Below, piece by piece: positions 6,777 through 21,929 of a stretch of DNA of 64,000 nt. A model generated the notes under the pieces. The model was not told the origin of the DNA and searched no databases. It saw nothing but the letters and a program-made list of their open reading frames with translations. Position numbers and translations under genes: made by a program. Source of the stretch: a virus; IMG/VR virus record IMGVR_UViG_3300042549_009011, positions 32,001 to 96,000 of that record; one strand, written 5' to 3'. Numbering within the stretch: position 1 is the first letter of the stretch; each line of letters begins with the position of its first letter.

Positions 6777-6794
6777 TAAAAAAATATAAATATT

Positions 6795-7412
6795 ATGTCC
6801 AATACAATTACAAGAATGCTACCATTCCGTCAGATCAACGAGAACGATGTTATCAACATGTTTTCTCTTGATACTATCACAGGAGAGGCTGGATCACTTG
6901 TCAAGATTAGCTCTGCCAACCTTGATTTAGATCCTGTTAATCTTATCGAACGTGCCGATTCACTCGGTTTCCAAAACTATTTGGGTAATGCTTCGTCATT
7001 ATATCCAGAAGTTCCTTATAAAGTAACGAAAGTTGCGAACACTGGAGAGCGCCCAATTGGTATTCTCTTGAAAGATGTTCGTTCAGTTGATGAAAACGGT
7101 GAGAATCTTCAATATTATCCACGCAAGAAAGAAGAACTTCAATGCGTTCTCTCTGGAGAAGCTGTGCCTATCGCTACTCGCGGTATCTTTATGCTTAACT
7201 CAAGAGCGCTTGCTGGTGGACTCGCTCCTGCAATCAACTCTTATGCAATTCCTTCTGCAAACGGAACTTTGACAGGTGTTGCCGCAGCTTCCGCAACAGC
7301 AACTCAAAAAGAGTATGCAGTTGGTAAATTCATCGCAACTGGTTCTCGCGCATCTCAACAAGATACCGACGAATACGCTGGTGTGTATGCAGTCCTTAAA
7401 CTTGAACTCTAA
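6795..7412 (+). CDS. Head decoration / minor capsid protein
   Basis: Immediately upstream of the major capsid gene; PIGILL...VPIATRG beta-rich pattern; high-expression codon bias (CGT/CGC, AAC). Confidence 0.6.
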   Translation: MSNTITRMLPFRQINENDVINMFSLDTITGEAGSLVKISSANLDLDPVNLIERADSLGFQNYLGNASSLYPEVPYKVTKVANTGERPIGILLKDVRSVDENGENLQYYPRKKEELQCVLSGEAVPIATRGIFMLNSRALAGGLAPAINSYAIPSANGTLTGVAAASATATQKEYAVGKFIATGSRASQQDTDEYAGVYAVLKLEL

Positions 7413-7426
7413 TAAGAAACAGATAA

Positions 7427-8569
7427 ATGAAAATTACTATTAACAGAACAGAAGACCAACTTGCTTTGGTAAAGGCAATGGGAAGCAACAACCGCGAAGA
7501 GGCTTACGAGGCTCAAGCTGCGGTTGCTGAACTCATGAGTCCAGTCATCAACGAGGTAATCAATAACGCGCAATCTATTGGAAATCTTTTCTCCACCATG
7601 ACTTTTGGTGCAGATGATAATCCTTCGATTCCTCTCGACTTGTTTTATGATATCACTGATGAAGATTTCATCACTGTATATTCACAGCAAGTAGCTGGTG
7701 GACTTCCTTACAGCCAAGTATTCCCTGCACACAACGAACTCAAGTTCTCTACCTACACTCTTGACAGTGCTTTCGCATTCGACAAGAAGTATGTTCGTAA
7801 GAGCCGCTTGGATGTTGTCAGTAAAACATTTACTCGTATGGCACAAGAGATTCTCCTTAAACAAGAGAAAACAGCATTCAACGTTCTTGCCGCTGCACTT
7901 GTCCGTGGTAACACCAAAATTGGTGCTGGTTCTTCTGCTTTCGGCAACCACATCATTGGTTCAACTACTGAAAACCAATTCACATTGGACGACTTCAATC
8001 GTCTCATCACTCGTTGCAAACGCATCAGTGCTTCCTTCTCTGGAGGAACTCCTGTTGGTGGAGCAAAAGTTGGTGTTACCGATATGATGGTTTCTCCAGA
8101 AATGATCCAAGAACTTCGTGCAATGGCTTATCAGCCAATCAACACTCGTCAAGCACCTTCTGGTGTCTCTTCGATTGCAGGAACAGAAGAATTCCGTAAT
8201 CAGCTTTATTCTGCTGCTGGACTTCCTTCTTTCTATGGAATCAACATGATTGAGATTCTTGAGCTTGGCGTAGGTCAACGCTTCAACAAAATCTTTGATG
8301 CTGTTGTAACTGCAAACGGTGCTACCGTCATTGGTGGTGGTAACTCTGGTACGTTCGTACAAGCAGACGACGAAATCCTTATCGGTATCGACCGTTCACG
8401 TGAGTCATTGGTTCGCCCAGTGGTTCTTGATGAAGATTCTTCAGCAGAATTCTCCATCATGGTTGACGACCAGTTCACCGTTCGCCAAAACAAAGTTGGC
8501 TACTACGGTAAACTTGAAGAAGGTAGAGTTTGCCTTGACGACCGTGCTTTAGTAGGTATTGTTGTCTAA
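7427..8569 (+). CDS. Major capsid protein (HK97-like, inferred)
   Basis: 380 aa; follows protease/scaffold and decoration genes; strong codon bias; followed by a strong terminator. Confidence 0.8.
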   Translation: MKITINRTEDQLALVKAMGSNNREEAYEAQAAVAELMSPVINEVINNAQSIGNLFSTMTFGADDNPSIPLDLFYDITDEDFITVYSQQVAGGLPYSQVFPAHNELKFSTYTLDSAFAFDKKYVRKSRLDVVSKTFTRMAQEILLKQEKTAFNVLAAALVRGNTKIGAGSSAFGNHIIGSTTENQFTLDDFNRLITRCKRISASFSGGTPVGGAKVGVTDMMVSPEMIQELRAMAYQPINTRQAPSGVSSIAGTEEFRNQLYSAAGLPSFYGINMIEILELGVGQRFNKIFDAVVTANGATVIGGGNSGTFVQADDEILIGIDRSRESLVRPVVLDEDSSAEFSIMVDDQFTVRQNKVGYYGKLEEGRVCLDDRALVGIVV

Positions 8570-8585
8570 TTCATGAAATAAAATT

Positions 8586-8619
8586 AGAGCCGCTCCGAAA
8601 GGGGTGGCTCTTTTTTTTT
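8586..8619 (+). terminator. Rho-independent terminator after the major capsid gene
   Basis: AGAGCCGCTCC-GAAA-GGGGTGGCTCT followed by a T run. Confidence 0.9.
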
Positions 8620-8650
8620 GATTTTTTTAATTTAGAATATATCATTATAT

Positions 8651-9088
8651 ATGAACAATCAATTTGATCCAGCTAAATACGAAGAAGAAATCTTAAAACA
8701 CGAAAAAAAATCTCCATCTAAAAATTTAGATATTTCTACTTTTGAAGAATTCGAAGTAACTGATGGCAAAAATAGGGACGAAGAAGATATTCAAAAAATT
8801 AAAGATTTAGAAGAAGTTCTTGGTCTTAGACAATTTAACCCTTATGGTACTTTAAATAGAGATATTTTTGAAGAGAAAATTGGAGATATGACAATGACTG
8901 ATATGCAAAATTTAGCCATGCAAATCGGCTTTCCTCCAAGTAGAGATAGACATGCTTTAAAAAAAGGATTGAAGAAAAGTTTTGATACTTTTTTGAAACA
9001 ACATAGTGTTGGAGCAGTCTTTCAACCTCAACCACTTTTTGATCAGAATTCCCCAAATTACAAAGAGACTGTAAGATTATTTGAATGA
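8651..9088 (+). CDS. Hypothetical protein (head module)
   Basis: 145-aa ORF between the capsid terminator and the neck genes. Confidence 0.5.
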   Translation: MNNQFDPAKYEEEILKHEKKSPSKNLDISTFEEFEVTDGKNRDEEDIQKIKDLEEVLGLRQFNPYGTLNRDIFEEKIGDMTMTDMQNLAMQIGFPPSRDRHALKKGLKKSFDTFLKQHSVGAVFQPQPLFDQNSPNYKETVRLFE

Positions 9089-9588
9089 ATGATTTTGGTA
9101 ATTTAGCTTATAAGATTGTTAAATATGAATTCAAGGAAGATGTTTCTCGTTTTCCTATTTCGTATGTATCTGGATGGCTAGAAACAAATCTAGGAGAATT
9201 AAATGGTCTTATCCATGAAGAGTATTCTATTAATGAAAGTGGGAATATTTCTCCTTGTCCTCTTTCTAATATAGAAGAAAATATTTTCTCTTACTTGTAC
9301 CAAATTAATTATTATGATAAAGCAGCAAGAGAATCTTTGAGGGGTATTGTTTGGAGCAATAACAGCGGCGTTGTTGATGATTGGACTTCTATCAAAGAAG
9401 GAGACTCATCTATACAAAGACAAAGCAAAAATTCAATTTCTAGAACTTATATGGAAATCTCTAAGGAGACAAGGAAAAGACTTAATGATTTAATATATCA
9501 ATATAACTCAACAAAATCTTATCCGTTACAAGTTGCTGGCGATGATGGTTATTATTATGAAATTTACAACAATCACTATGACAGATAA
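9085..9588 (+). CDS. Putative head-tail adaptor
   Basis: Size and position; helical N-terminus followed by SIKEGDSSI beta-hairpin typical of adaptors. Confidence 0.5.
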   Translation: MNDFGNLAYKIVKYEFKEDVSRFPISYVSGWLETNLGELNGLIHEEYSINESGNISPCPLSNIEENIFSYLYQINYYDKAARESLRGIVWSNNSGVVDDWTSIKEGDSSIQRQSKNSISRTYMEISKETRKRLNDLIYQYNSTKSYPLQVAGDDGYYYEIYNNHYDR

Positions 9589-10022
9589 TGGCATCATTAA
9601 TTTCCAACGCGCAAAAATCATCAATTGATTCTGCTTTAAGTCTTTTGCACGATACCTTTAGTATCGAAATTTATGCTTATATAGAAAAATCAGAAAGCGT
9701 AGTATCTGATTTAAATTATAATGCGGTTTATGGATCTTCAAAGAATCAGAGCATCGCTTCTTTCAATAAAACTTTAATCAAAGAGGCTATACAAGCCAGA
9801 GTTAAATTTTTCACCAATCAAGAAGAAAATACTTTACCAGCAAATTTATCAGAATCAAAAGGTTTAGTTCGCATAAAGATTTCTAAAGAGGATTACGAAA
9901 AAATTAAAATTTGCACAAAAATTCAAATTAGAGAAGCTTTTTACACTGTTGATGGTGATGCTGATATTGAGGGAATATTTTCTGATAATTATTATACCAT
10001 TTATTTGAGGCGTGAAAACTAA
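9588..10022 (+). CDS. Putative head closure / stopper protein
   Basis: 144 aa beta-rich ORF ending YYTIYLRREN; TAATG-coupled to the adaptor gene. Confidence 0.45.
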   Translation: MASLISNAQKSSIDSALSLLHDTFSIEIYAYIEKSESVVSDLNYNAVYGSSKNQSIASFNKTLIKEAIQARVKFFTNQEENTLPANLSESKGLVRIKISKEDYEKIKICTKIQIREAFYTVDGDADIEGIFSDNYYTIYLRREN

Positions 10023-10638
10023 TTTCTTAAAAGCATCTCAGTTAAAAGTCACATTAAATAAAAAACAATTTCAAAAAGAAGTTTTTGTTGGTGGCGCAAG
10101 CGTTATTACCAGCAAGCTTAGACCAATAATTCAAGAAAGAATTAACGAAGCTCAAAAAGAAATGGTTGAAGAGTTTGAGACTCACCCAGTATCTGTTGAG
10201 ATTTCAGGAGGCAACAACTCAAGCAATACAAGCGGTCTTTTAGGTGGTTATGGAAATCTCTTTTCTTTTATTGGTTTTGAAGACGGACAAACTCCAATTT
10301 CAGAGCTTTCAAATATATTGAAAAAAAATATACCTTTCAAAATAAGAAGAGTAAATGCAAATGGTGGTTATTCAGTGCTTGTTCAAGCCCCTTCAAAAAA
10401 AGAATTAGAAAGCATAGCCCAAGTTTCTTGGATGGGGGGTAGAAGTTGGTTAGATGGAATTGAAAGAAGTATAGCTGGTTTAAACAGATATTTATATGAT
10501 CCACAATATTCTTTAAAGAATTCCAGATCTGGAACTGGTTCTCAGACACAAAACGACATTAGAAGTGTAAGACAAGTAAGAAGCCCATATCTTTCTAAAA
10601 TACTTTCTAATTTTAAAAATAGACTCAATAGACTTTGA
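10012..10638 (+). CDS. Putative neck / tail completion protein
   Basis: Basic protein with C-terminal PYLSKIL motif; canonical position between stopper and tail terminator. Confidence 0.4.
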   Translation: MKTNFLKASQLKVTLNKKQFQKEVFVGGASVITSKLRPIIQERINEAQKEMVEEFETHPVSVEISGGNNSSNTSGLLGGYGNLFSFIGFEDGQTPISELSNILKKNIPFKIRRVNANGGYSVLVQAPSKKELESIAQVSWMGGRSWLDGIERSIAGLNRYLYDPQYSLKNSRSGTGSQTQNDIRSVRQVRSPYLSKILSNFKNRLNRL

Positions 10639-11483
10639 AAGCGCAATTTGATCAACAATTAATATCTAGTTTCTACCTTTGGTTTGAAAATCAACTATTG
10701 GCTGATTCTGTTCTTGCTTATCAGACTGGCGTGGCAAACAGCTACCAATATATTGATGCATTTGACGTTCCAGATAACTTTGTGGCATATCAGGGCAAAT
10801 ACAGGCAATTAGTGGCAGACTACGATGTTTCTGTACCTAATTCTGGATTCTTTATAAACAACACATTTATTTCTGGTGGGCAGTCTGGCTTTTATACCGA
10901 TTACAATAATGGAAGAATTATTCTTCCTGCTGCATCTGGACAAAGCTTAAATATTACTTCTACTTCTACAGTAAAAGAAATCAATACTTATTTATCTAAT
11001 GATAGTCCAGAACAAATTCTTATTGAAAGCGATTTCATGGTTAATGGAGAGACTATTCCAAATTTATATAGCCAAAAGAAAAAACTTGATGAAAATATTT
11101 ATATGTTGCCAGCTTGTTTTGTTTTTCCTATAGAATCAGAAAATAAAGAGTTTTCCTTTGGTGGAGAAGAAGAAACTAAAAGTAGAATTAGGGTAATGGT
11201 TTTGGCAGAAGATAATTATACCTTAGATGGAATACTTTCAGTATTTAGAGACTCAGCTAGAAAATGCATTCCAATTATTGATTATGAAGATTTTCCTTAT
11301 GGAGCTTTCTTTTCGATTAAATCATTTCCTTATAGATATTCTCAACTTTCTCAAACATCAATAAAAAAATCTTTTATTGAAAAAACTATGGCTTCTAGAA
11401 TTGCTGCTGGTATACCAGATACTAAAACATTTAGGATTGGATTTTTAGATTTTGATATATCAACTTATCGTTTCCCAAGATAG
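10635..11483 (+). CDS. Putative tail terminator
   Basis: Directly upstream of the tail tube gene; LPACFV motif; Ser/Thr-Gly-rich N-terminal half. Confidence 0.45.
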   Translation: MKAQFDQQLISSFYLWFENQLLADSVLAYQTGVANSYQYIDAFDVPDNFVAYQGKYRQLVADYDVSVPNSGFFINNTFISGGQSGFYTDYNNGRIILPAASGQSLNITSTSTVKEINTYLSNDSPEQILIESDFMVNGETIPNLYSQKKKLDENIYMLPACFVFPIESENKEFSFGGEEETKSRIRVMVLAEDNYTLDGILSVFRDSARKCIPIIDYEDFPYGAFFSIKSFPYRYSQLSQTSIKKSFIEKTMASRIAAGIPDTKTFRIGFLDFDISTYRFPR

Positions 11484-11490
11484 AACGCTT

Positions 11491-11496
11491 GTGTAA
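11491..11496 (+). promoter_or_regulatory. GTGTAA putative late promoter (tail tube)
   Basis: Intergenic, 20 nt before ATG 11517. Confidence 0.65.
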
Positions 11497-11516
11497 TTAA
11501 AAAAAACTAAAAAAAT

Positions 11517-12716
11517 ATGGCTCGCACACGAATTATTTCCCAAAGTAAAGCTCTTTTTGTATCTCCAACAGGGCTTCTTGCAACAAATTATGGCTATGCA
11601 TCTAATACTGGTGCTTTAGCTCCTCAACAACTTCATAGAATTGATACATTTTCATTTGATGTTGACTTGGCTGGAGGAAGACAAGATATCCGTGAATTCG
11701 GTCAGCTTGCTCGTATCGGAACAATTAGAGTTGGAGAAATTACTCCAACTATTTCGTTAGGTTATTATCTTGGTGATGGAGCAAACGAACACAACCTTGG
11801 ATTCAATATTGCAGGTATCAACGGTGCTGGTACAGTTTCGCAATTAATCTCTGGTATTCTTACCCAAGACCCAATTAAAAAAGAAAAAAACTTGTACCTT
11901 TTAACAACTCAAGAAGGAACAGATGCTTTCGCTGCATCTTCTTATACTCCTGCTGCTCGTTCTGGACATGATGTTATTGGATTTGGTAACGCTACTCTTT
12001 CTAATTATTCTTTGAGCCTCGCTGTTGGAGAAATCCCACGTGTGGATGTAGAACTTGAGTGCGGTAATATTCGTTTCTACACTGGAACAAGTTCTGGTAA
12101 TTCTTGTGTAAATCCTGCTCTTATTAGAGAAACTGCTGCTCAACTTGATACTGGTAGATTTGTTATCACTGGCGCAAATACTGGTTTAACTTCAATTGAC
12201 GTTCTACGTCCATCAGACGTAACCGTTTCATTTACCAATAATGCTGCTGGTATCGGCGGTGTTGCTCTTAGCGGTGTCCAAATTCAAAGCGCAACTATTG
12301 AAGTTCCACTTAGTCGTGAAACTCTTGAAAAACTTGGAAGTGAGCTTCCTTATTCAAAACCTCTTGAGTTCCCAATCAATGTTACTTGCAGTATTAATGG
12401 TCTTATCACAGACTTCACAGAAGGTGCGCTTCAAACAATCCTTACTGGATGTGCTGGAGAGTCTAACAATGACATCACGATTAGTGTTGCAAACCGTTGC
12501 GACAGTAGCGATGAAGTTATTCGCTATGTATTCAAGAATGCAGTTCTTGATAGCCAAAACTTCTCTATCGGTCTTGATGACAATGAAACAGTTGATTTGA
12601 CATTCTCTGCTCAAATCGCAGGAGCTACTACCACAAATGCGGGTGTATTCCTTAGCGGTTCCTTCGATGGAGTTGGAATTACTGGAAGAGATAACGAATA
12701 TCCTCGTTTCTTCTAA
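11517..12716 (+). CDS. Major tail tube protein
   Basis: High-expression codon bias, own terminator, beta-rich sequence with tube-like motifs (FSFDVD...REFGQL; SATIEVPLSRETLEKLG). Confidence 0.75.
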   Translation: MARTRIISQSKALFVSPTGLLATNYGYASNTGALAPQQLHRIDTFSFDVDLAGGRQDIREFGQLARIGTIRVGEITPTISLGYYLGDGANEHNLGFNIAGINGAGTVSQLISGILTQDPIKKEKNLYLLTTQEGTDAFAASSYTPAARSGHDVIGFGNATLSNYSLSLAVGEIPRVDVELECGNIRFYTGTSSGNSCVNPALIRETAAQLDTGRFVITGANTGLTSIDVLRPSDVTVSFTNNAAGIGGVALSGVQIQSATIEVPLSRETLEKLGSELPYSKPLEFPINVTCSINGLITDFTEGALQTILTGCAGESNNDITISVANRCDSSDEVIRYVFKNAVLDSQNFSIGLDDNETVDLTFSAQIAGATTTNAGVFLSGSFDGVGITGRDNEYPRFF

Positions 12717-12731
12717 TTAGCTTAAAAGTTC

Positions 12732-12764
12732 AAGGGTGGCTGGGAAACCAGTCACCCTTTTTTT
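12732..12764 (+). terminator. Rho-independent terminator after the tail tube gene
   Basis: AAGGGTGGCTGG-GAAA-CCAGTCACCCTT followed by a T run. Confidence 0.9.
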
Positions 12765-12770
12765 GTGTAA
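12765..12770 (+). promoter_or_regulatory. GTGTAA putative late promoter
   Basis: Directly after a terminator, 8 nt before ATG 12779. Confidence 0.7.
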
Positions 12771-12778
12771 GATATTGC

Positions 12779-13624
12779 ATGAGCGTTGAAAGAGTAACTT
12801 ATGCAGATTCAAGAGTCTACGTAAATAATATTTTGCTTACTGGCATATCTAGTTGCGAGATTAACGCAACTAGAGAATTCGAATCTTTAAGTTCTCTACT
12901 TTCTTTAAATACAGTAGATAAAATATTAAAATCAGATCAAAAACCACAAGTAACTCTTTCTTGGATTGTTGGAGAAGAATCAAGCGATCCATTCTTTGAT
13001 TTTGAAACTAATGGAATTTTATCTGTTGACAGCTTCACTATTAAAAAAAGAGATATTTTAGGCACTTTAGAAGCAACGGGATGTTTTCTCACTTCTTATT
13101 CTGTAGATGCCTCTGTTGGTTCTTTAATTACTGCAAATGCATCATACGAAGCACTTGGTTACGAATTCACCGATGATGGGAAATTAAATATAGCCGACCA
13201 AACATCAGATTATTATAGAGCTTTTGTGCCTTCTTCAATACAGTTAAGTTCAAACTTTTCAGAAGGAGATATATTCTCATTCCCTATACAAAGTTTTCAA
13301 ATATCAGTTCCGATACAAAGAAAAACAATTAAAAAAGTTGGCGATTTAAATGCTCAGTATAGATATCCAGTATTCCCAGCAGAAGCATCCATATCTTTTT
13401 CTGCAATCAAAAATGAAATTACTGGATTGGATTTCTCTAAAATAGTTTTAGAAAAAGGAAATTTTCAAATAGAAATGTTGGGTTGTGACAATCCATCAAA
13501 AACTTACGTATTAGATAATTGTTCTTTAAATAGTGTTTCTGAATCCATAAGCACTGACGAAAAGGCATTAATTAATTTTGAGTATTCTTCGACTATAATT
13601 GGCAATTCTTTTTTATATTATTAA
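12779..13624 (+). CDS. Minor tail tube-like paralog
   Basis: IQSFQISVPIQRKTIKKVG...PVFPAEASISF aligns with IQSATIEVPLSRETLEKLG...PLEFPINVTCSI in 11517..12716. Confidence 0.6.
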   Translation: MSVERVTYADSRVYVNNILLTGISSCEINATREFESLSSLLSLNTVDKILKSDQKPQVTLSWIVGEESSDPFFDFETNGILSVDSFTIKKRDILGTLEATGCFLTSYSVDASVGSLITANASYEALGYEFTDDGKLNIADQTSDYYRAFVPSSIQLSSNFSEGDIFSFPIQSFQISVPIQRKTIKKVGDLNAQYRYPVFPAEASISFSAIKNEITGLDFSKIVLEKGNFQIEMLGCDNPSKTYVLDNCSLNSVSESISTDEKALINFEYSSTIIGNSFLYY

Positions 13625-13627
13625 TAC

Positions 13628-14092
13628 ATGAAAATCATTTCTCCAATAGAAGAATATTATAGCCTAAAGTTCAATGCGAATATTTTAGTTGATGTTCCAG
13701 ATTCTGGTTTTTCTTTTTATTTTGGCAAAACTGGAGTTTCTGGTTCTTTTTCTACTGGTTTTGGTTTTTATGGTAGTGGGGGAATGATTTTCGATAATTC
13801 TGGAAATTTCTTTGGCGGTTATCATAGCGGTAGGCAAAATCAGATAGAGGGAAATTTATTTGGAAGAAGACTATCTTATTTTTACAATGGATCTTTAATT
13901 AATAACAATTTACCTTCTCAAAAATTTTTCAATGCAGTAGAGTTTGATAAACACAGAAATAGTCAACTAATCTTAGATATTAATTACTTCCAAAAAGAAG
14001 ATACTTATATAAACGTTTATGCAAGTGGGCAAATGGTTCTTTTAGAAAACAATATTCCGATACAAATTCCAGAACAATACGCAAACGATTAA
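13628..14092 (+). CDS. Small Ser/Thr-Gly-rich putative virion protein
   Basis: In tail module; aromatic- and Gly-rich; 8 [ST]G dipeptides in 154 aa. Confidence 0.45.
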   Translation: MKIISPIEEYYSLKFNANILVDVPDSGFSFYFGKTGVSGSFSTGFGFYGSGGMIFDNSGNFFGGYHSGRQNQIEGNLFGRRLSYFYNGSLINNNLPSQKFFNAVEFDKHRNSQLILDINYFQKEDTYINVYASGQMVLLENNIPIQIPEQYAND

Positions 14093-14120
14093 TTGAATTT
14101 TTTAAAAAATTATTTATAAT
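14093..14120 (+). promoter_or_regulatory. Sigma70-type promoter candidate
   Basis: TTGAAT-N16-TATAAT upstream of 14139. Confidence 0.5.
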
Positions 14121-14138
14121 CTACATATAATATAAAGT

Positions 14139-15008
14139 ATGAAAGAAATCTATAGTTTTAATGTCGAAAGAGAAATAGAGTCCTCAAAGCCAGTCATCAA
14201 AAAAACAAAAAATGGCACAATTGAGTCTTTTGAAAAAACAATCAAAAAAGTTAATCATAGAGTGGTATTTTTGAAGCCATCAATGTCTAAAATTGAAGAG
14301 GCAGAATTCTTTTATGGTCAAAAGTTTAACGAGTATATCAATTCTGGCTTTCTTACAAAAGCGATGCTTAACAAGAAGATGGGCGATATTGGAGGTCTTT
14401 CTTCTAAAGTTACGGTAGAGTCTTTACAAAAAGCAATCGTAGACAACATTGAAGCCTCAAGAGTAATTGAATTTTATGGTTCTTCTAAAGATTTAACAGA
14501 AGAACAGCAGAATAAATTAGATGAAGCAAAATTAACTTTTTCCTCAACAAAGAGCCAAGTTACAGATTACGAGCAAGCAATTCGTTCTCAATTTTCACAA
14601 ACAGCAGATGTTAAGTCTGAACAAAAACTTATTGAGTGGCTTATCTTCCACCTTGCTTTTTACGAGGAAGATGTTGATGGCAAAAAAGAATTATTTCCAA
14701 TTTTCGAAGGAGACTCCTTTGAGGATAAAAGATATATGTATTTGGAACTTTGCGAAAAAATTGAGGATATAGAAAATCATAACTTATATAAAGTAAAAGC
14801 TATTTTCGATAAGTCTTTTGAAACTCTTGCTCGCGTTGCCAGTATTTGGTATAATAAAATTGCAGAAAATCAAGAAGATATTGACAAGGCTCTTAAAGAA
14901 ATGTTCTCAAACCAAAGTTCAGATGTTGAAAAACAAAACGAAGATTTAAGTTCTGATAAAGAAGAATCCGTAACAGATGGACAAGAAGGAACAGATAAAG
15001 AAGGCTGA
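14139..15008 (+). CDS. Putative tail assembly chaperone
   Basis: Helical, acidic protein between tail tube and tape measure genes. Confidence 0.45.
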   Translation: MKEIYSFNVEREIESSKPVIKKTKNGTIESFEKTIKKVNHRVVFLKPSMSKIEEAEFFYGQKFNEYINSGFLTKAMLNKKMGDIGGLSSKVTVESLQKAIVDNIEASRVIEFYGSSKDLTEEQQNKLDEAKLTFSSTKSQVTDYEQAIRSQFSQTADVKSEQKLIEWLIFHLAFYEEDVDGKKELFPIFEGDSFEDKRYMYLELCEKIEDIENHNLYKVKAIFDKSFETLARVASIWYNKIAENQEDIDKALKEMFSNQSSDVEKQNEDLSSDKEESVTDGQEGTDKEG

Positions 15009-15858
15009 AATAGTTCTTCTTGATATTCTTCGTGGTTACAGCATACTGCAAGCTGAAGAAAAGTGTTTATATTTTAAACACTTTTCTTTGTTGGACTCTT
15101 TAGTATTTGAAGAGGAGTATCACTTATCTTTGGCTTCAGCCAAAAAGTCTGGAATTAAAGATGAGAAGCAAATTATTGATGATGCTGTAAAAAGCAAAAA
15201 ATGGTCTATTCAAAAAGAAGAGCAAATCAAATCTTTAATTTGGACTATAAATAAATTATCCGCTGCTACAAAAAAAATCTCTGATCCTTACCAAAAAAGA
15301 AGTGCCGAAAATAGCGTTAAAGAAAGACAAGAAGAATTACATAAGCTAGAAAAAAATAGATCAGAAATATGCTCTTTTAGTGCAGAATCTTTTGCTCAAA
15401 ATAAGAAGATCAAAAAGATAATAAGCTCTTGTTTATATGAAGATTTAGAGTTTAAAGACAAGATAGATTCAGACTCGATAACATATTATTATAATTCTAT
15501 TTTCTTTGATAAAATATCAGAATTAAATAATCAAAATATTATTTTAACCGCAGCATATAATACTTCTTTTTTTGAAGTATTTTGTTTGAATTATAGAACT
15601 CCACATATTATTTTAAAGAACTCTGGTATGGATATGACTGTCTTTCAGAAAAATTTATTAGTTTATGCAAATGCCTTATTAAATAAGCTAAAAAATACAA
15701 ATATTCCAGAAGCAATAATAGAAGATCCTATCAAAGTTCTTAATTATAAAGAGCAAGAAAACGATAATGGTAAAAAGACAAGCATAGGAACAGAAGACTT
15801 AAAAGAAAAAATGGCTAAAAATGGCGGCAAATTAAATCCAGAAGATTTAATTACTTAG
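14977..15858 (+). CDS. Putative tail assembly chaperone 2
   Basis: Directly upstream of the tape measure gene; helical. Confidence 0.45.
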   Translation: MDKKEQIKKAEIVLLDILRGYSILQAEEKCLYFKHFSLLDSLVFEEEYHLSLASAKKSGIKDEKQIIDDAVKSKKWSIQKEEQIKSLIWTINKLSAATKKISDPYQKRSAENSVKERQEELHKLEKNRSEICSFSAESFAQNKKIKKIISSCLYEDLEFKDKIDSDSITYYYNSIFFDKISELNNQNIILTAAYNTSFFEVFCLNYRTPHIILKNSGMDMTVFQKNLLVYANALLNKLKNTNIPEAIIEDPIKVLNYKEQENDNGKKTSIGTEDLKEKMAKNGGKLNPEDLIT

Positions 15859-15863
15859 TGTAA
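15858..15863 (+). promoter_or_regulatory. GTGTAA putative late promoter (tape measure)
   Basis: 9 nt before ATG 15873. Confidence 0.7.
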
Positions 15864-15872
15864 ATAAAGTAA

Positions 15873-18800
15873 ATGGCTAAAAGCGCAATAGATGTAAGTT
15901 TAAACATGACTCTGAATGCTCAGAGTTTAAACGCTGCTACAAAAGAGGTAAGACAATCTCTTGGTAGAATAACTGGCAATGCATCTGAATTCCAAAAATC
16001 TCTTGATGCTTCTACTGCGCGTGTTTTCGCTTTCGGAGCTTCTACTTTTGTTATTGAAGGAGTAAAACAAGCATTTAGTGCTTTAGTATCAACTACTATT
16101 GAAGTTGAAAAAAGGCTTATTGAAATTAAATCTATTTTTGGTGGAACTGCTAATGAGTTTAATCAATTTAGAGAGTCTATTTTCCAAGTTGCGAAAAATA
16201 CTGGTCAATCTTTTTCTGTTGTAGCTGATGCGGCAGCAGAATTTGCTCGTCAAGGTCTTGATGCGGCAGAGACAGCAAAAAGACTAGAGGCTGCTCTTAT
16301 TTTAACAAGAGTGTCTGGTCTTGATTCAGTTAAGGCTGTTAGCGCTTTAACGGCTGCAATTAACGGATTTAGTTCTGCTGGATTAAGTGCTGCACAGATT
16401 ACGAATAAATTGATTGCAGTTGATACAAAGTTTGCCGTTTCTGCGAAAGACTTGGCAGAAGGATTTAGTCGTGCTGGTTCTACAGCAGAAGATGCTGGCG
16501 TTAGCTTTGACGAGCTTCTAGGCATCATTACAGCGGTTCAGCAAACGACTTCCCGTGGTGGCGCTGTTATTGGTAACGCCTTAAAATCAATTTTCACAAG
16601 ATTAAGCAGAAGCTCTACAATTGAAGACCTTCAAGGTCTTGGTGTTGCTATTGATTCTTCTCAAACTGGTATCCAAAAACTACAAGCACTTTCTAATGCT
16701 TTGGATCAAATTAGCGATCCATCAAAAGCTTCTCAAATCAAAGAGCTTGCTGGTGGTGTTTATCAAATCAACATTGTTAGTGCGGCTCTTAAAGATTTAT
16801 CAAAAGAAACCTCTATCTTCTCACGTGCTACCGCTATTTCTGCTGGAGCGACAAATGAGGCTTTGCAAAAAAATAATGATTTAAATAAATCGTTAGCTGC
16901 TCAATTAAATTCTTTAGTTATAGGTTTTACTAATTTAGCAGAAAAAATTGGACAAATTACATTTGCACCATTGCTTGGTACTCTTGCTGGATTAGCAACT
17001 AAAGTATCAGATTTCTTTAACGAAGCTTTAGACCCAGAAAAAGGAAATGCATTTGTTCAAGGTTTATTAAAAAGTATTGGATCATTTTTAAGTGGCCCTG
17101 GGCTTGTCCTTATTACTACAGCTTTTTTAAAGATTATAACTCTTGTAGCTAGATATGCAAAAGAAGGATTTGCTTCTATTTTATCTATTGGCACACAAAC
17201 AGAAAAATTAAAAAGCATTCAAGAAGGTCTTGTTAATAGTTTAATTAATGATAAGAAATTTAGAGAAGACATTCTAAGCTCCACTTTAACTTTAGAGCAA
17301 AAACAAAAAGCAGTTGGAGATGCTATTGCTAGAGAAAATGCTTTGTTAAGAGAACAACAAGCAATTCTAACTACTTTATCTAAACAAGCGTTAAATCTTG
17401 GAGTATCTGGATTTAGTAAGGAAAAAGGATTTACAGGAAAATCTGGTAAGCCTATTGCAGCAAGAGGTTATATTCCAAATTACGCGGCTTCCGCTCAAGA
17501 GACAATGATGGAAACATCTGCGGCTAGAGAGCATGGATATAAAGCAGGAAAGGTTTATAATACAAGATTATATGATGGAACTGGAGGTTCTTTTAAATCT
17601 ACCGTAAATAGCGCGGAGACAATCAAAACAGTAAGAGGTCCAAATGGTAAATTAGGCACTTATGTTATTCCTCCTAATGGTTTTGCTGGTAAAGGATTTG
17701 TTCCTAATTATGTAGGACCAGCAGCCGCGATTAGAGCGGCTGGTATTAAATCGCTTAATGATTTAGAAAAATATAGGGTAGCTGGAAAGAACTCGTTTCA
17801 GATAGGTGGAACAATAATTCCTCTTTCTCAAGCTAAAAATGTTTTAGGTAGAACTTCAACTCAAGAAACAAACGCAAGAGGTCAAGAAAGACTTATTATG
17901 GATGGCGGTCAATTTGGCATGCTTATACCAAACATTAAAGCTCTAGGATCTGTCAATCAGTTTCTAGGAACATTAGACACTTCAAAAGGAAAAGTCCCAT
18001 ATAATTTAAGTAACTTAGCTATTAGAGGTCCACAAGTACCCAATGCAGTTGATCAAGCGGCAAATCCAGATGATGAAAAATTAAAAGAGAGTATTTATAA
18101 AACTGTTTCTAATAAAGCTGCTAGTTTCGCTAATCTTTTAAGAGGTCAAAAAGTTTCTTCTTCTGATATAAGATCTTCTTTAGAGCAAAATAGTGGAGCT
18201 ATTGGAGCTTTAAATTCAGCAGTAGGAGCAGCTTTTGAATCTGCCGTTTTATCTGCATATCCATCTCAATTTTTTGATAAACAGGCAAATAAAATTGGTG
18301 GAGACTTTGATTTAAGAAATCCATCAGAAGACGTAAGAACTTTATTTGCTTTAGACGCAGCAAGAACAAAGTTAGATTTCAAAGCATCTGATTCAAAGTT
18401 CTCTAAAGATAGTATGGCTAAAAAGATTTATAATGAAAATTATAAAAACAAAGTGCCTTCTACTTTAGGAAAAAGAGGTGCTGCTAGTGGTTTTATTCCT
18501 AATTTTGCTGTTGATCTTAACAAGTCTCAAGATTATGTTAAAAATCAAAGAAAGAGAAACTTTAAAGCTTCAACATATAGAAAAGCTACTGGAACAATAG
18601 GTTCTTTGTTTAAATCATTACCAGAGAAATTTTTTGCTGACGGTGTTCTAGGGGATGGAGCGCAGGGACTAGAGACAAATGGTATATTTAATTTAATTAA
18701 ACAAAATGCATTATACGGTGCATCGTTTGCTGGTCCAAAAGCAATAAAATTTGTAACTGAGGCTGAAAAATATGGATTAAAAGTAGAAAAATCTTTAAAA

Positions 18801-21800
18801 GACAAACTCGCAAAATTAGTTGTTAAGGGAGCTTCAAAAATGAAGGGATTTGCTGGAGGCTTCCTCCCCAACTTCGCCAATCCACTACAAGATGCCTTGG
18901 GTCGCGAAATGGCTGCTGGTGTTCCTGCTTCACAAATTTATGTTGATTCTTCTGCAAGACTTCGTAATTCTAACAATCCTATGGGATTGATGGTGGCAAA
19001 CTCTATTGACGAGCCAAAAGGCGGTTATCAAGGAATCAATAGAGCCGTTAAAGAAGGAAAAAATCCTAGAAAATATGGTGCTGCTGGTGGATTTGTTCCA
19101 AATTATGCGAAGGGAGGTTCGGGATTATCTGGTGGTATTGGTAATTTACAGATTGCATTTTTTGCATTATCTACCGTTTCAAATACTCTTTTGGCTTCGA
19201 ATAACGAATTAAATGATACTATACAAAAAGTTATTACAGGACTTTCTACATTACTTATTTTACAATCTTTAGCTTCGCCATTAAAAGGTGTGGTTGGTAC
19301 ATTTACAAAGTTTCCAAAATTATTTTCTTCATTAGGGAAAAATATTTCGAAATTTGGATTACTAAAAGCTCCAATTGCAGCGCTTTCAGCACCGCTATTA
19401 GGTTTGGTAGCAGTCGCAGGTACACTTTTAGCTATTGGAATTACTTTCAAAACTCTTCAAAGTAAAATTAATAAAAGCTTAGAAGAATCTCTAAACATCA
19501 ATAAACGAGTTGCCTCAGAAAGAAAAAAAAGAATATCAGAAGGAGAAATTGCTTTGCGAGGAACTGGTGCATCAGATACATCTGGAATTGTAGAAAGATC
19601 AAATCAAGAAGTAGATAGAGTAAAAAAATTAAATGATTTGCAAGTTGAGCTTGATAAAACTGGAAGCGGTTTTATTGATAGCTTTTTAGAATCAGGCATC
19701 CTTTTTACTGATATTAAATTCGATGCAACCGCTTCTACTCAAGCAAAACGAAAAGAAATTCAAAAGAAAATAGAAGAATTAGAAAAACAAGGAGAAGAAA
19801 CTTGGGGACAATATTCTAATGATATTGATGCAATTAAAAAAGCACAAATAAAATTACAAAAAAATAACGAACAAGTTCAACAAATAGCATTACAGAAAAC
19901 ATCTTCTGGAAGATATGCTTCCAGTATTTTGGGTGTTGCTAGTCAGTTAAAAACAGACAAATCTTCTTTAGAGGCTAAAAGATCTGGCTTGACAGAAGAA
20001 TTACAAACTTCAAAGAAATCTGCTACAAAAGACGAAACTGTTGAAGAGAAAAACAAACGATTAAAAAATGAATCTAGAATAAAAGAAGAAATTTCTTCTT
20101 TAGACAAGGATATTAAAGCTACTTCAAGCGCTTTGGCAGATAGCTTTAATCAATTTAATCAAGTTATAGAATACTCTTCGGAAAATTATGACAAAGCATT
20201 TGAAGATGCTATATCTTCTTTTAAAAAATCTGCTTCTTTGTTATCTTCTACTTTAGAAGAAACTGCAAAATTTCTAATGCAAAGAGGTCAATCTTTAGAT
20301 ATCGCTTCTTCATTAACACCAGCTTCTGGAAAGTCTTCAGAAATTTTAGCCAAACAACTTCAAATAGCTTCTGGAAAAAATCAAGCACAAACATCTAGAA
20401 ATGAATTCAAACAATCTATACTTGATTTTGGAAAAAATTTAAATAATTTAGATGTATTAAAAGTATCAAATGCCCCTCAAGAAGAAAGGGAAAGACAAAT
20501 AGCAGAATTTAAGAGTTTAAACGCAAGAATAAAACCAGATTCAACAGTTGGAGAAGACGGATTGACTGTAAAGCAAAGATCTGAAGTAGAGAGAAGTTTC
20601 GCTAGTAATAAAGCTAGTGCTGAAGGTTTTTCTTTGCTGCAAGGATCAGAGGATATTAAAAAATTAGAAAAAGATTTAACAACTGGAAAATTTGACCAAA
20701 ATATTTTTAATGACTTTTTCTCAGGAGGAGAAAAGGCTTTAAAAGATACTCTACAAAAATCATTTTCTTCTGTAGATTTCGAAAAAGATCAAGGAAAAGA
20801 ATTGTTTAATAAAGCCAAAGAAAGCGCCATCGCTTATAGAGACAACTTAATAAAAGGATATACTGAAGCAAGAAATATACAAACTCAAATTAATAATGAT
20901 ATCAAGGCTAATGGTTTAGAATTAGTTGCGGCACAAAAACAAGCTCTTTCAGAATTGCCTAATGTATTAAAACAAATAAGGGAAGGTGAAAAAGTAGATC
21001 CAACTGCTTTATTCAATAAGTTTCAGGAAGCAGCTAAATTATTAAAAACAGGAGATCCTAAAGATGCTAGAAAAGCTAATGAAATTTTAGCATCAACAAG
21101 TGGAGAATCAGAAAGATTTAAAGCTCTTTTTGGGCAACAAGCTTTAGAGGGAATTCAACAAAGATCTGGATTAACACCAGATATTATATCAAAATCTGTT
21201 AGCACAGCAAGTTTAGATAAAATAGATTATAGCAGTATTGAAGATATTATTAGGACAAAATTTTCAGTTGGATCAGATGAAGCTTTAAGAAGCTTGAATA
21301 AAGTTAAAGTAGATCCAACAAAATTACAAGATTTCCTTAATACTATTAATAGAATTACTTCTGGTGGAAGTGCAAAATTAAAAGAAGCTGGAGCAGATAT
21401 AACTGGAAGTTTAGGGGGACTTTCTAAAGGGAAAATTGGTGCGCCAAGTGTTAGAGAAGTAAATCAATCATTAAGAAGCGAATTATCTTCTGCTTCAAAA
21501 GAACAACTGGTTGGGCTTGATAGCACTTTAAAAGCTTTTGTTAAAGATAGCAGTAATGTAGAAATATTTAAAAAGCTAGAAGAACAACTTAAACAAACAT
21601 TAGGTGCAGAAAAAGGATCTAAATTTGCTTCTGCATACAAAGATGCAACTAAACAAGGAGAATTTACTGGCGAAGATGCAGAAGTCAGCAAATTAACCGA
21701 AAAAAGAAACCAGTTAGCGGTTGAAATAGATGCAGTAAATAAACAAGTCCAAGATTTTAAAACAGCATTCGATAAAACAAAAATCACAGCTTCAATAGAT

Positions 21801-21929
21801 CAATTGGCTGAAGTTGTTAATTCAGCGTCTGCAAATATAATAAGCTTTTCAGAATTGACTAGAAAAATAGATCAGATAGGAACTATTCTTAATAACAATC
21901 CACTGTTTGGAACAGCAGTAAGTCAATAA
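15873..21929 (+). CDS. Tape measure protein with an internal repeat-delimited cassette region
   Basis: 2018 aa; TP901-like N-terminal domain (AAAEFARQG, GVSFDELLG, IGNALKSIFTRL); hydrophobic segments; long coiled coil. Confidence 0.9.
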   Translation: MAKSAIDVSLNMTLNAQSLNAATKEVRQSLGRITGNASEFQKSLDASTARVFAFGASTFVIEGVKQAFSALVSTTIEVEKRLIEIKSIFGGTANEFNQFRESIFQVAKNTGQSFSVVADAAAEFARQGLDAAETAKRLEAALILTRVSGLDSVKAVSALTAAINGFSSAGLSAAQITNKLIAVDTKFAVSAKDLAEGFSRAGSTAEDAGVSFDELLGIITAVQQTTSRGGAVIGNALKSIFTRLSRSSTIEDLQGLGVAIDSSQTGIQKLQALSNALDQISDPSKASQIKELAGGVYQINIVSAALKDLSKETSIFSRATAISAGATNEALQKNNDLNKSLAAQLNSLVIGFTNLAEKIGQITFAPLLGTLAGLATKVSDFFNEALDPEKGNAFVQGLLKSIGSFLSGPGLVLITTAFLKIITLVARYAKEGFASILSIGTQTEKLKSIQEGLVNSLINDKKFREDILSSTLTLEQKQKAVGDAIARENALLREQQAILTTLSKQALNLGVSGFSKEKGFTGKSGKPIAARGYIPNYAASAQETMMETSAAREHGYKAGKVYNTRLYDGTGGSFKSTVNSAETIKTVRGPNGKLGTYVIPPNGFAGKGFVPNYVGPAAAIRAAGIKSLNDLEKYRVAGKNSFQIGGTIIPLSQAKNVLGRTSTQETNARGQERLIMDGGQFGMLIPNIKALGSVNQFLGTLDTSKGKVPYNLSNLAIRGPQVPNAVDQAANPDDEKLKESIYKTVSNKAASFANLLRGQKVSSSDIRSSLEQNSGAIGALNSAVGAAFESAVLSAYPSQFFDKQANKIGGDFDLRNPSEDVRTLFALDAARTKLDFKASDSKFSKDSMAKKIYNENYKNKVPSTLGKRGAASGFIPNFAVDLNKSQDYVKNQRKRNFKASTYRKATGTIGSLFKSLPEKFFADGVLGDGAQGLETNGIFNLIKQNALYGASFAGPKAIKFVTEAEKYGLKVEKSLKDKLAKLVVKGASKMKGFAGGFLPNFANPLQDALGREMAAGVPASQIYVDSSARLRNSNNPMGLMVANSIDEPKGGYQGINRAVKEGKNPRKYGAAGGFVPNYAKGGSGLSGGIGNLQIAFFALSTVSNTLLASNNELNDTIQKVITGLSTLLILQSLASPLKGVVGTFTKFPKLFSSLGKNISKFGLLKAPIAALSAPLLGLVAVAGTLLAIGITFKTLQSKINKSLEESLNINKRVASERKKRISEGEIALRGTGASDTSGIVERSNQEVDRVKKLNDLQVELDKTGSGFIDSFLESGILFTDIKFDATASTQAKRKEIQKKIEELEKQGEETWGQYSNDIDAIKKAQIKLQKNNEQVQQIALQKTSSGRYASSILGVASQLKTDKSSLEAKRSGLTEELQTSKKSATKDETVEEKNKRLKNESRIKEEISSLDKDIKATSSALADSFNQFNQVIEYSSENYDKAFEDAISSFKKSASLLSSTLEETAKFLMQRGQSLDIASSLTPASGKSSEILAKQLQIASGKNQAQTSRNEFKQSILDFGKNLNNLDVLKVSNAPQEERERQIAEFKSLNARIKPDSTVGEDGLTVKQRSEVERSFASNKASAEGFSLLQGSEDIKKLEKDLTTGKFDQNIFNDFFSGGEKALKDTLQKSFSSVDFEKDQGKELFNKAKESAIAYRDNLIKGYTEARNIQTQINNDIKANGLELVAAQKQALSELPNVLKQIREGEKVDPTALFNKFQEAAKLLKTGDPKDARKANEILASTSGESERFKALFGQQALEGIQQRSGLTPDIISKSVSTASLDKIDYSSIEDIIRTKFSVGSDEALRSLNKVKVDPTKLQDFLNTINRITSGGSAKLKEAGADITGSLGGLSKGKIGAPSVREVNQSLRSELSSASKEQLVGLDSTLKAFVKDSSNVEIFKKLEEQLKQTLGAEKGSKFASAYKDATKQGEFTGEDAEVSKLTEKRNQLAVEIDAVNKQVQDFKTAFDKTKITASIDQLAEVVNSASANIISFSELTRKIDQIGTILNNNPLFGTAVSQ
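17457..19109 (+). repeat. Five degenerate A-x-G-[FY]-[IVL]-P-N-[FY]-[AV] peptide repeats in the tape measure protein
   Basis: AARGYIPNYA 17457, AGKGFVPNYV 17685, AASGFIPNFA 18480, FAGGFLPNFA 18849, AAGGFVPNYA 19080. Confidence 0.9.

Follow-up and report, generated by a model that had tools for sequence, protein, structure and literature searches.

The DNA considered here, referred to below as the window, is a stretch of 64,000 nucleotides (nt) with a G+C content of about 31%, corresponding to bases 32001–96000 of a 147,748-bp IMG/VR virus record that is rated 100% complete by CheckV, and the gene that concerns us is the frame 15873–21929 on the plus strand, which encodes a tape measure protein (TMP; P0001) of 2018 amino acids (aa). 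The middle of this protein is an array of four cassettes fenced off by five copies of a short junction peptide, and among the TMPs of this family whole cassettes are acquired, lost, reordered and substituted, the breakpoints lying on the junction peptide; this is the best-supported result of the analysis. It is very probable that the array is a cassette rack in which the junction marks the unit boundary; the best explanation of the findings as a whole, to which we would give a probability of roughly 0.6, is that the rack holds cargo delivered by the virion and that the junctions are processing sites.

The pattern G[FY][IVL]PN[FY][AV] matches the TMP five times, with its glycine at residues 532, 608, 873, 996 and 1073; the full 10-aa motif starts at residues 529, 605, 870, 993 and 1070 (spacings of 76, 265, 123 and 77 aa; nt 17457–19109). 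Shuffled versions of the protein give a mean of 0.0006 matches, as against the five observed, and the motif is absent from every other place and frame of the 147,748-bp genome. The original prediction, made from the letters of the DNA, had put five motifs at these very residues and spacings, and was exact in this; it had also described globular inserts lying between hydrophobic regions, which agrees with the domains and flanking segments found here. The inserts were modelled with AlphaFold2 from family alignments, in two models, one of aa 525–883 (cassettes 1 and 2; mean predicted local distance difference test score, pLDDT, 77) and one of aa 866–1085 (cassettes 3 and 4; mean 64), and cassettes 1 to 3 are modelled as folded (pLDDT 76–94), with cassette 4 at only 60–65. 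The parts of the protein are the following:

15873–21929, + strand: TMP gene (P0001), matching PF10145 PhageMin_Tail at 83.5 bits (cut-off 33.2) and PHROG
16185–16754, + strand: PF10145 domain, aa 105–294 (E 2.4e-23)
17094–17150, + strand: hydrophobic transmembrane-like (TM-like) segment before the array, aa 408–426 (Kyte-Doolittle, 19-aa window, score 1.85)
17457–17486, + strand: junction motif 1, AARGYIPNYA, aa 529–538 (by pattern; model residues 1–13 with pLDDT below 50)
17487–17684, + strand: cassette 1, family 2, aa 539–604, a helix and a four-stranded sheet in the model (pLDDT 76–88)
17685–17714, + strand: junction motif 2, AGKGFVPNYV, aa 605–614 (by pattern; DNA collinearity with the sibling locus L028 stops here)
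17715–18479, + strand: cassette 2, family 1, aa 615–869 (255 aa), an alpha/beta domain in the model (pLDDT about 90), with the signature F788-E789...D813...D835-x-K837
18480–18509, + strand: junction motif 3, AASGFIPNFA, aa 870–879 (by pattern; the DNA block common to L027 begins here, at aa 873)
18510–18848, + strand: cassette 3, family 7, aa 880–992, a basic helical domain in the model (pLDDT 80–88; isoelectric point, pI, 10.0)
18849–18878, + strand: junction motif 4, FAGGFLPNFA, aa 993–1002 (by pattern; G/C-ending codons)
18879–19079, + strand: cassette 4, family 0, aa 1003–1069, a small alpha/beta domain in the model (pLDDT 60–65)
19080–19109, + strand: junction motif 5, AAGGFVPNYA, aa 1070–1079 (by pattern; the DNA block common to L027 finishes here, at aa 1079)
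19374–19430, + strand: hydrophobic TM-like segment after the array, aa 1168–1186 (Kyte-Doolittle score 2.15)
19623–21929, + strand: C-terminal region, aa 1251–2018, presumably the ruler part, from a composition with many charged and helix-forming residues

Every motif stretch has a pLDDT below 50 in both models, and the junction is predicted to be, in the monomer, a disordered linear peptide between independent domains; the models are of the monomer, and low values of this kind are compatible with order when the TMP is trimeric or bound to a partner.

The exchange of cassettes is best seen in the DNA. One relative, L028, is a syntenic sibling phage on an ENA metagenome scaffold of 125,659 bp, whose TMP (P0012) is 87% identical to that of the window in the N-terminal 520 aa and 51% identical in the C-terminal region. 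Positions 5800–17712 of the window are collinear with it at 82–84% nt identity (81.5% over the codons for TMP aa 1–614), and this collinearity stops at 17712, which is codon 614, inside motif 2, the DNA similarity being patchy afterwards. Over a wider span, window 5800–31984 against L028 5–26396, the structural module keeps 75–84% nt identity and its only long break runs from TMP codon 615 to about codon 1600. Cassette 1 lies before the break and is 89–91% identical to its counterparts in P0012 and in another related TMP, P0003; cassette 3 is absent from P0012, and a P-loop cassette (family 8) occupies its place. The second comparison is with L027, whose TMP (P0007) is far more distant, with 40% identity in the N-terminal 520 aa. 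Cassette 1 has no match in P0007, and the best match of cassette 2 outside P0012 and P0007, at 45%, is in P0002; the sole long DNA match to L027 covers codons 873–1079, from motif 3 to motif 5. Within that block, cassette 3 is 92.3% identical in nt and 93% in aa, and cassette 4 is 66% identical in nt and 69% in aa, from which it follows that cassette 3 alone has been recently exchanged, between motifs 3 and 4.

The same is found between pairs of relatives. In L004 and L005 (87–90% nt identity) one whole cassette differs, and the identity stops and resumes at the motif; L012 and L019 (flanks of 91% and 96% nt identity) differ by the insertion or deletion of one cassette, likewise at the motif; and L014 and L010, with N-termini that are 64% identical, share a cassette at 92.5% nt identity in different positions (orders 8-1-0 and 1-8-0 by family number). 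At the protein level, 28,433 ends of high-scoring segment pairs (HSPs) of at least 60% identity were considered, and 84% of these ends lie no more than 10 aa from a motif, the share for random positions being 14%; the 84% is inflated because HSPs tend to extend through a conserved motif, and the DNA cases are the cleaner evidence. The exchangeable domains and the recombination junction of the original prediction are thus strongly supported, with breakpoints on the motif in both protein and DNA.

It could be asked whether the peptide has any biochemical role, or is only an in-frame microhomology for recombination, or its scar, that is, a shuffling signal at the level of DNA. The breakpoints do coincide with the DNA that encodes the motif, some pairs of copies share up to 26–30 identical nucleotides, and blastn finds motif-to-motif matches of 33–43 nt at 88% identity between the copies of the window and those of L027. 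However, the five coding copies of the window differ at synonymous sites, and among 131 copies, taken from 25 genes, none of the synonymous codons is left unused (for glycine GGT 48, GGA 37, GGC 25 and GGG 21 times; for proline CCT 73, CCA 35, CCG 13 and CCC 10 times), with a mean identity of 67% across the 30 nt, a longest exact run that averages 8 nt, and copies within a gene no closer to one another than copies from different genes (0.677 and 0.668). The amino acids, on the other hand, are fixed across lineages whose N-terminal domains are 40% identical. Because the codons vary synonymously and the amino acids stay, selection acts on the peptide and not on the DNA, as the original prediction had supposed from the five copies, and a role in DNA shuffling alone becomes very unlikely. 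Motif 4 of the window also goes against it, as it keeps the peptide with quite different, G/C-ending codons (GGC TTC CTC CCC AAC TTC GCC; G+C at third codon positions 0.7, against 0.15 for the whole gene). These codons could reflect selection against intragenic recombination among neighbouring motif copies, or a foreign origin; the counterpart of motif 4 in L027 is only partly G/C-ending.

The family to which this TMP belongs was delimited with residues 500–1100 as the query. A word-indexed database gave 351 matching proteins, and an exhaustive search 713 clusters (at 50% identity) with E ≤1e-3, of which 522 had E ≤1e-10; most of the matches listed are giant proteins of 1.6–5.4 kaa and most have PF10145, the shorter ones looking like fragments. 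The clade of giant TP901-family TMPs formed by these proteins is all metagenomic and entirely uncultivated. In the 120 best relatives the motif is mostly present in 2–10 copies per protein, with a maximum of 10, and 121 proteins with 646 copies between them yield the consensus A-[AS]-[SG]-G-[FY]-[VI]-P-N-[FY]-A, in which G and P are fixed by the search pattern and N or S was permitted at the Asn position; Asn occupies that position in 97% of the 646 copies, with F or Y on either side, and in 91–96% with a relaxed pattern. Degeneracy is greatest in the first copy of an array, with Ser for Asn in 16 of 220 first copies, and the last one favours Tyr after the Asn.

All-against-all BLAST grouped 525 inter-motif segments into 60 families, which are combined in 89 different architectures in 119 proteins, that of the window being 2-1-7-0 in family numbers. 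Profile–profile comparison (hhalign) merges only the families {1,4,5,14,20}, {15,27} and {8,13}, and since so few are joined, the cassettes are not diverged copies of one repeat; the possibility that all of them derive from one domain was ruled out on the same grounds. The check on homologues suggested by the original prediction gave what it anticipated, as repeat number (2–10) and insert content (about 60 families) vary and the flanks are conserved; the outcome that would have spoken against it, with inserts that do not vary and together make up a single continuous repeat, is clearly not what the relatives have. Its loose pattern common to the two short inserts, cassettes 1 and 4, did not survive, the profiles of their families being related with a probability of 0.4%. 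In the structural check, the inserts fold in the AlphaFold2 models, and Foldseek against the PDB finds no known fold for them.

Assemblies from metagenomes seem to break in the array, as would be expected if coexisting strains differ in their cassettes. Several short contigs of relatives start about 20 aa ahead of the last cassette, and L029 has a 100-N scaffold gap (9833–9932) within the cassette array of its TMP. Proteins of about 1600 aa that start at the last cassette were considered as natural splits, and the one that was checked, P0092 of L029, proved to be an artefact of that gap.

Two of the four cassettes of the window occupy their usual places. Family 2 (about 66 aa), to which cassette 1 belongs, is found in 41 of the 120 relatives, almost always first, and is the usual first "bookend"; family 0 (about 67 aa), that of cassette 4, is found in 108 of the 120, usually last, and is the near-universal last bookend, with BLAST matches to cassette 4 in 215 of 232 proteins and none in the other 17. 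Cassette 4 is among the most conserved segments of the TMP, with 60–76% identity even across lineages with 40% identical N-termini, and about 25 of its residues, of which many are polar (R, E, S, Q, Y, D, K, N, D-E-P, Q, R, E, N), do not vary between lineages that are otherwise only 40% identical. Neither Pfam nor a profile search against PDB sequences gives a match to this cassette, and its function is probably central. All four cassettes (17487–19079) are basic, with a pI of 9.5–10.0, the N-terminal domain having a pI of 5.9 and the C-terminal region one of 6.9.

Cassette 2 is putatively nuclease-like, by its signature. It has the residues expected in sequence of the PD-(D/E)xK type (an acidic residue, D, and (D/E)-x-K), namely E789, D813 and D835-x-K837, and in the 21 sequences of families 1, 4 and 5, which hhalign links at 75–96% probability, there is no variation, or next to none, in the columns G-x-x-F-[ED], D and [DE]-x-K, the G, F, D and K themselves being invariant. 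A PD-(D/E)xK core fold was looked for with Foldseek against the PDB and BFVD and with VIA-align in its wide mode, with no nuclease match, and the profile of the cassette-2 superfamily has no match among PDB sequences. More generally, Foldseek against the PDB gave no match for either model, nor did BFVD for the model of cassettes 1 and 2; the best Z from VIA-align wide with both models was 5.2 (for a helical part), under the noise level that the tool itself quotes, and the ESM Atlas returned for cassettes 2 and 4 unnamed or sub-threshold neighbours only.

In the relatives, few cassette families match Pfam, and some carry signatures of enzymes. Family 6 has a weak but consistent match to GNAT acetyltransferases (Pfam E 1.7e-4), the Walker A loop is conserved in families 8 and 13, family 28 has faint nucleotidyltransferase matches, and family 12, present in about 10 of the 120 related TMPs, conserves HExxH. 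The last of these could, to judge from its signature, be the enzyme that processes the junctions in the phages that have it, or an effector; examples are:

L002, 9128–9706: family 12 cassette with the conserved zinc-peptidase signature HExxH
L004, 9047–10006: family 12 cassette with the same signature

Peptidoglycan hydrolases were considered as cargo of the array and ruled out, as the hydrolase domains of the relatives are all outside it: the lysozyme, SLT, GH19 and NlpC/P60 domains that some relatives have lie 700–1000 aa downstream, in the C-terminal region, and because they are so far away the array differs from the familiar wall-degrading module.

These data also bear on the idea that the inserts serve the ruler, or the trans-envelope channel, as structural spacers, whose diversity would come from neutral drift or from adaptation to the host envelope. 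It could be said for this idea that the four cassettes of the phage match no known enzyme fold, and that cassettes 1 and 4 are conserved bookends and not variable cargo. Nevertheless, the cassette families are mostly non-homologous, some have catalytic-type signatures (Walker A, HExxH, GNAT, E...D...[DE]xK), the number of cassettes ranges from 1 to 9, with clean insertions and deletions between close relatives, and the presence of a cassette at 92% nt identity in otherwise distant TMPs indicates recent transfer under selection, and we regard spacers as very unlikely, and as the least probable of the explanations considered.

In the mechanism that we propose, the conserved junction peptide would fence an array of independently folding cassettes between the N-terminal PF10145 and hydrophobic part and the C-terminal part. 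As the TMP would exit the tail before the DNA, the cassettes would be the first to arrive in the host, as finished proteins. The set carried by this phage comprises a small bookend, the nuclease-like and the basic helical domain, and the near-universal last bookend, and those of the relatives include GNAT-like, P-loop, HExxH and other domains. A cut at the junctions, after tail assembly or upon ejection, would then free the cassettes in the manner of a viral polyprotein.

The array is read as cargo that arrives first in the host because the TMPs of lambda, T5 and P23-45 are ejected or carry an enzyme. The TMPs of lambda and T5 exit the tail before the DNA and form a path across the envelope (PMC12617516; PMC10038345), and gp96 of the Thermus phage P23-45 is a TMP of 5002 aa with an active virion RNA polymerase that transcribes the pre-early genes (Chaban et al., 2024, PMC10770324). 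Like the TMP of the window, gp96 is a giant TMP; its enzyme works in the host before phage gene expression, and it follows that part of a TMP can serve as cytoplasmic cargo, although in gp96 this is a single N-terminal enzyme, as opposed to a shuffled array fenced by motifs midway along the protein, and there is no description of a junction peptide in it. By these analogies, we consider it somewhat probable that the cassettes are delivered cargo. That their destination is the cytoplasm would be a guess, one that fits the TM-like flanks and the need for acetyl-CoA or nucleoside triphosphates. In 174 complete-looking TMPs, a TM-like segment is present upstream of the first motif in 92%, downstream of the array in 58% (with the same threshold) and inside the array in 3%.

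For the junction, a processing site is favoured by the following considerations: (i) a short, strictly conserved peptide in disordered linkers among unrelated domains has the pattern of cleavage sites in polyproteins; (ii) the concept of polyvalent proteins predicts the release of units (PMC5512222); (iii) and finally, the cut site of T5 pb2, the one TMP cut to have been mapped, has [small]-F-V-P, as in the junction motif. As regards the second, the polyvalent proteins of phages and conjugative elements unite 2–15 unrelated domains in one giant polypeptide, enter the cell along with the DNA that invades it and, according to a proposal, are processed into separate units (Iyer, Burroughs, Anand, de Souza and Aravind, 2017, PMC5512222); the TMP of the window is like them in having several unrelated globular domains in one polypeptide, with four cassettes of four families that are predicted to fold independently. 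In the polyvalent proteins, however, the idea of processing rests on an embedded metallopeptidase domain and not on a repeated junction peptide; the TMP of the window has no HExxH and no peptidase match in Pfam, the domains typical of polyvalent proteins were not found here with Pfam, and PMC5512222 does not mention tape measure proteins.

As regards the third, the maturation cut of T5 pb2, after R1127, yields pb2* and pb2C (Linares et al., 2023, PMC10038345), and in the T5 record the sequence around this residue is N-S-F-V-P-R|A-E-G-G. Both TMPs have a hydrophobic stretch followed by a functional domain, and the site and the junction motif have F-V-P and a preceding small residue in common, 3–4 residues that could be a matter of chance; T5 has a single site and no array, and its domain is a cell-wall peptidase, whereas the hydrolases of the clade are outside the array. 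In lambda, how the cleavage of gpH is catalysed and where exactly it occurs are unknown, as is the enzyme that cuts the TMP in T5 and in lambda, according to a 2025 paper (PMC12617516). A link between the array and the C-terminal module of gpH (PF09718) was rejected, there being no PF09718 match and only sub-threshold neighbours by language model (score 0.76–0.77), and the glycine-rich C-terminal region of lambda gpH has no [FY][IV]P in its vicinity.

Self-cleavage at an asparagine, through a succinimide, occurs in some of the maturation cuts of virus capsids. By analogy, the near-invariant Asn of the junction would allow a cut of this type. That the junction is a cleavage site is, for all this, a tentative proposal, with somewhat less than an even chance, and its fuller form is doubtful, namely that the junction signals a cut set off by assembly or ejection (an Asn self-cut, or one made by an unrecognised protease of the tail or the host), by which a TMP polyprotein would free strain-specific shuffled enzymes in the host before the DNA arrives, and which would also explain the cuts in T5 and lambda.

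Almost as probable as processing is a role in docking or registration, the main alternative. According to it, the junction would be an uncut node, the three copies at each level of the TMP trimer packing against one another or binding the lumen of the tube, the tail assembly chaperone or some other common partner; the chains would be kept in register with the folded domains as beads strung along the ruler, and the cassettes would remain tethered after ejection. The core of the motif, aromatic-aliphatic-Pro-Asn-aromatic with invariant G and P, does resemble a pocket-binding or turn-forming peptide, a universal protease was not found, and the TM-like segments at both sides of the array suggest an anchored loop. 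The basic pI of the four cassettes would be in keeping with a tube lumen that is acidic; the virion RNA polymerase of P23-45, moreover, belongs to the same polypeptide as the TMP. Nevertheless, the AlphaFold2 monomer shows no packing of the motifs on the cassettes or on other motifs, the frequent degeneracy of the first copy (Ser for Asn in 16/220) is hard to square with a uniform structural node, and cargo with different targets would be more useful if freed, as argued in PMC5512222; taken as a whole, this alternative seems to us rather unlikely.

Returning to the delivered rack with processing sites, several findings weigh against it, in addition to the inflation of the HSP ends and the monomeric state of the models mentioned above. 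No protease is common to all the members, as HExxH occurs in about 10 of the 120 TMPs, the query has none, and even cassette 4 is missing from 17 of 232. In the comparison with pb2, T5 has Arg where the junction motif has its near-invariant Asn, and the residues that follow differ. PF09718 has no match in P0001 (E ≤1), nor in P0011, P0017 and P0025 (E ≤5). There is also no match in 50,697 records of cultured phages, even with the most conserved cassette at E ≤1, and none, and hence no prophage copy, among 185,579 prokaryote species with one genome each. Lastly, the four cassettes of the query have no known fold or family in Pfam, Foldseek against the PDB or VIA-align, and because of this the reading of them as cargo rests on the relatives and on a sequence signature.

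With respect to its genetic context, the TMP is a member of the TP901-family TMPs, to judge from its PF10145 match, and tape-measure families account for 12 of its 13 PHROG matches (best E 3.7e-49). The gene order is terminase, capsid-like, tube-like, two overlapping open reading frames (ORFs), TMP and large ORFs, and is the same in L028, with the identities of the neighbours being weak. The genes upstream are:

12779–13624, + strand: candidate tail tube protein, upstream of the TMP, from a weak Pfam match to PF18906 Phage_tube_2 (E 6.9e-4, under the curated cut-off)
14139–15008 and 14977–15858, + strand: two overlapping ORFs of about 290 aa each, from the ORF list, in the chaperone position, their role being suggested by position only

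Tail assembly chaperones with a programmed frameshift are usually located just upstream of the TMP. The two ORFs at 14139–15858, which lie just there and are also present in L028, had no match in the Pfam and PHROG searches and are twice the usual size of such chaperones; inspection of their overlap (14977–15008) by eye turned up no obvious slippery heptamer.

TMPs are rulers and channel formers, sometimes with one wall-degrading domain. Further close parallels to what is described here are the TP901-family TMPs with hydrolases and the effectors of contractile injection systems derived from TMPs, such as Sle1, which have exchangeable functional domains (PMC13277306); like the TMP of the window, they consist of a PF10145 scaffold with added modules, and in them these are one or two wall-degrading or C-terminal modules, whereas the array possesses bookend cassettes and a conserved boundary peptide proper to it. 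No publication was found on the junction peptide or on a TMP cassette array fenced by motifs, the motif strings giving only unrelated papers on human proteomics.

In summary, in a whole clade, of at least 713 clusters, the mid-part of the TMP serves as a plug-in rack, complete with a boundary peptide and bookends, and cassettes pass between phages that are only distantly related. Should the cassettes be delivered, they would constitute a large unexplored reservoir of first-strike phage proteins, among which anti-defence factors, nucleases, acetyltransferases and kinases would be candidates, and the junction offers a simple sequence rule by which they can be found and excised for testing. The junction is, in addition, a definite candidate for the site and the manner of TMP cleavage, and a natural system of in-frame cassettes in an ejected protein suggests a route by which cargo might be loaded into phage tails or tail-like injection devices.

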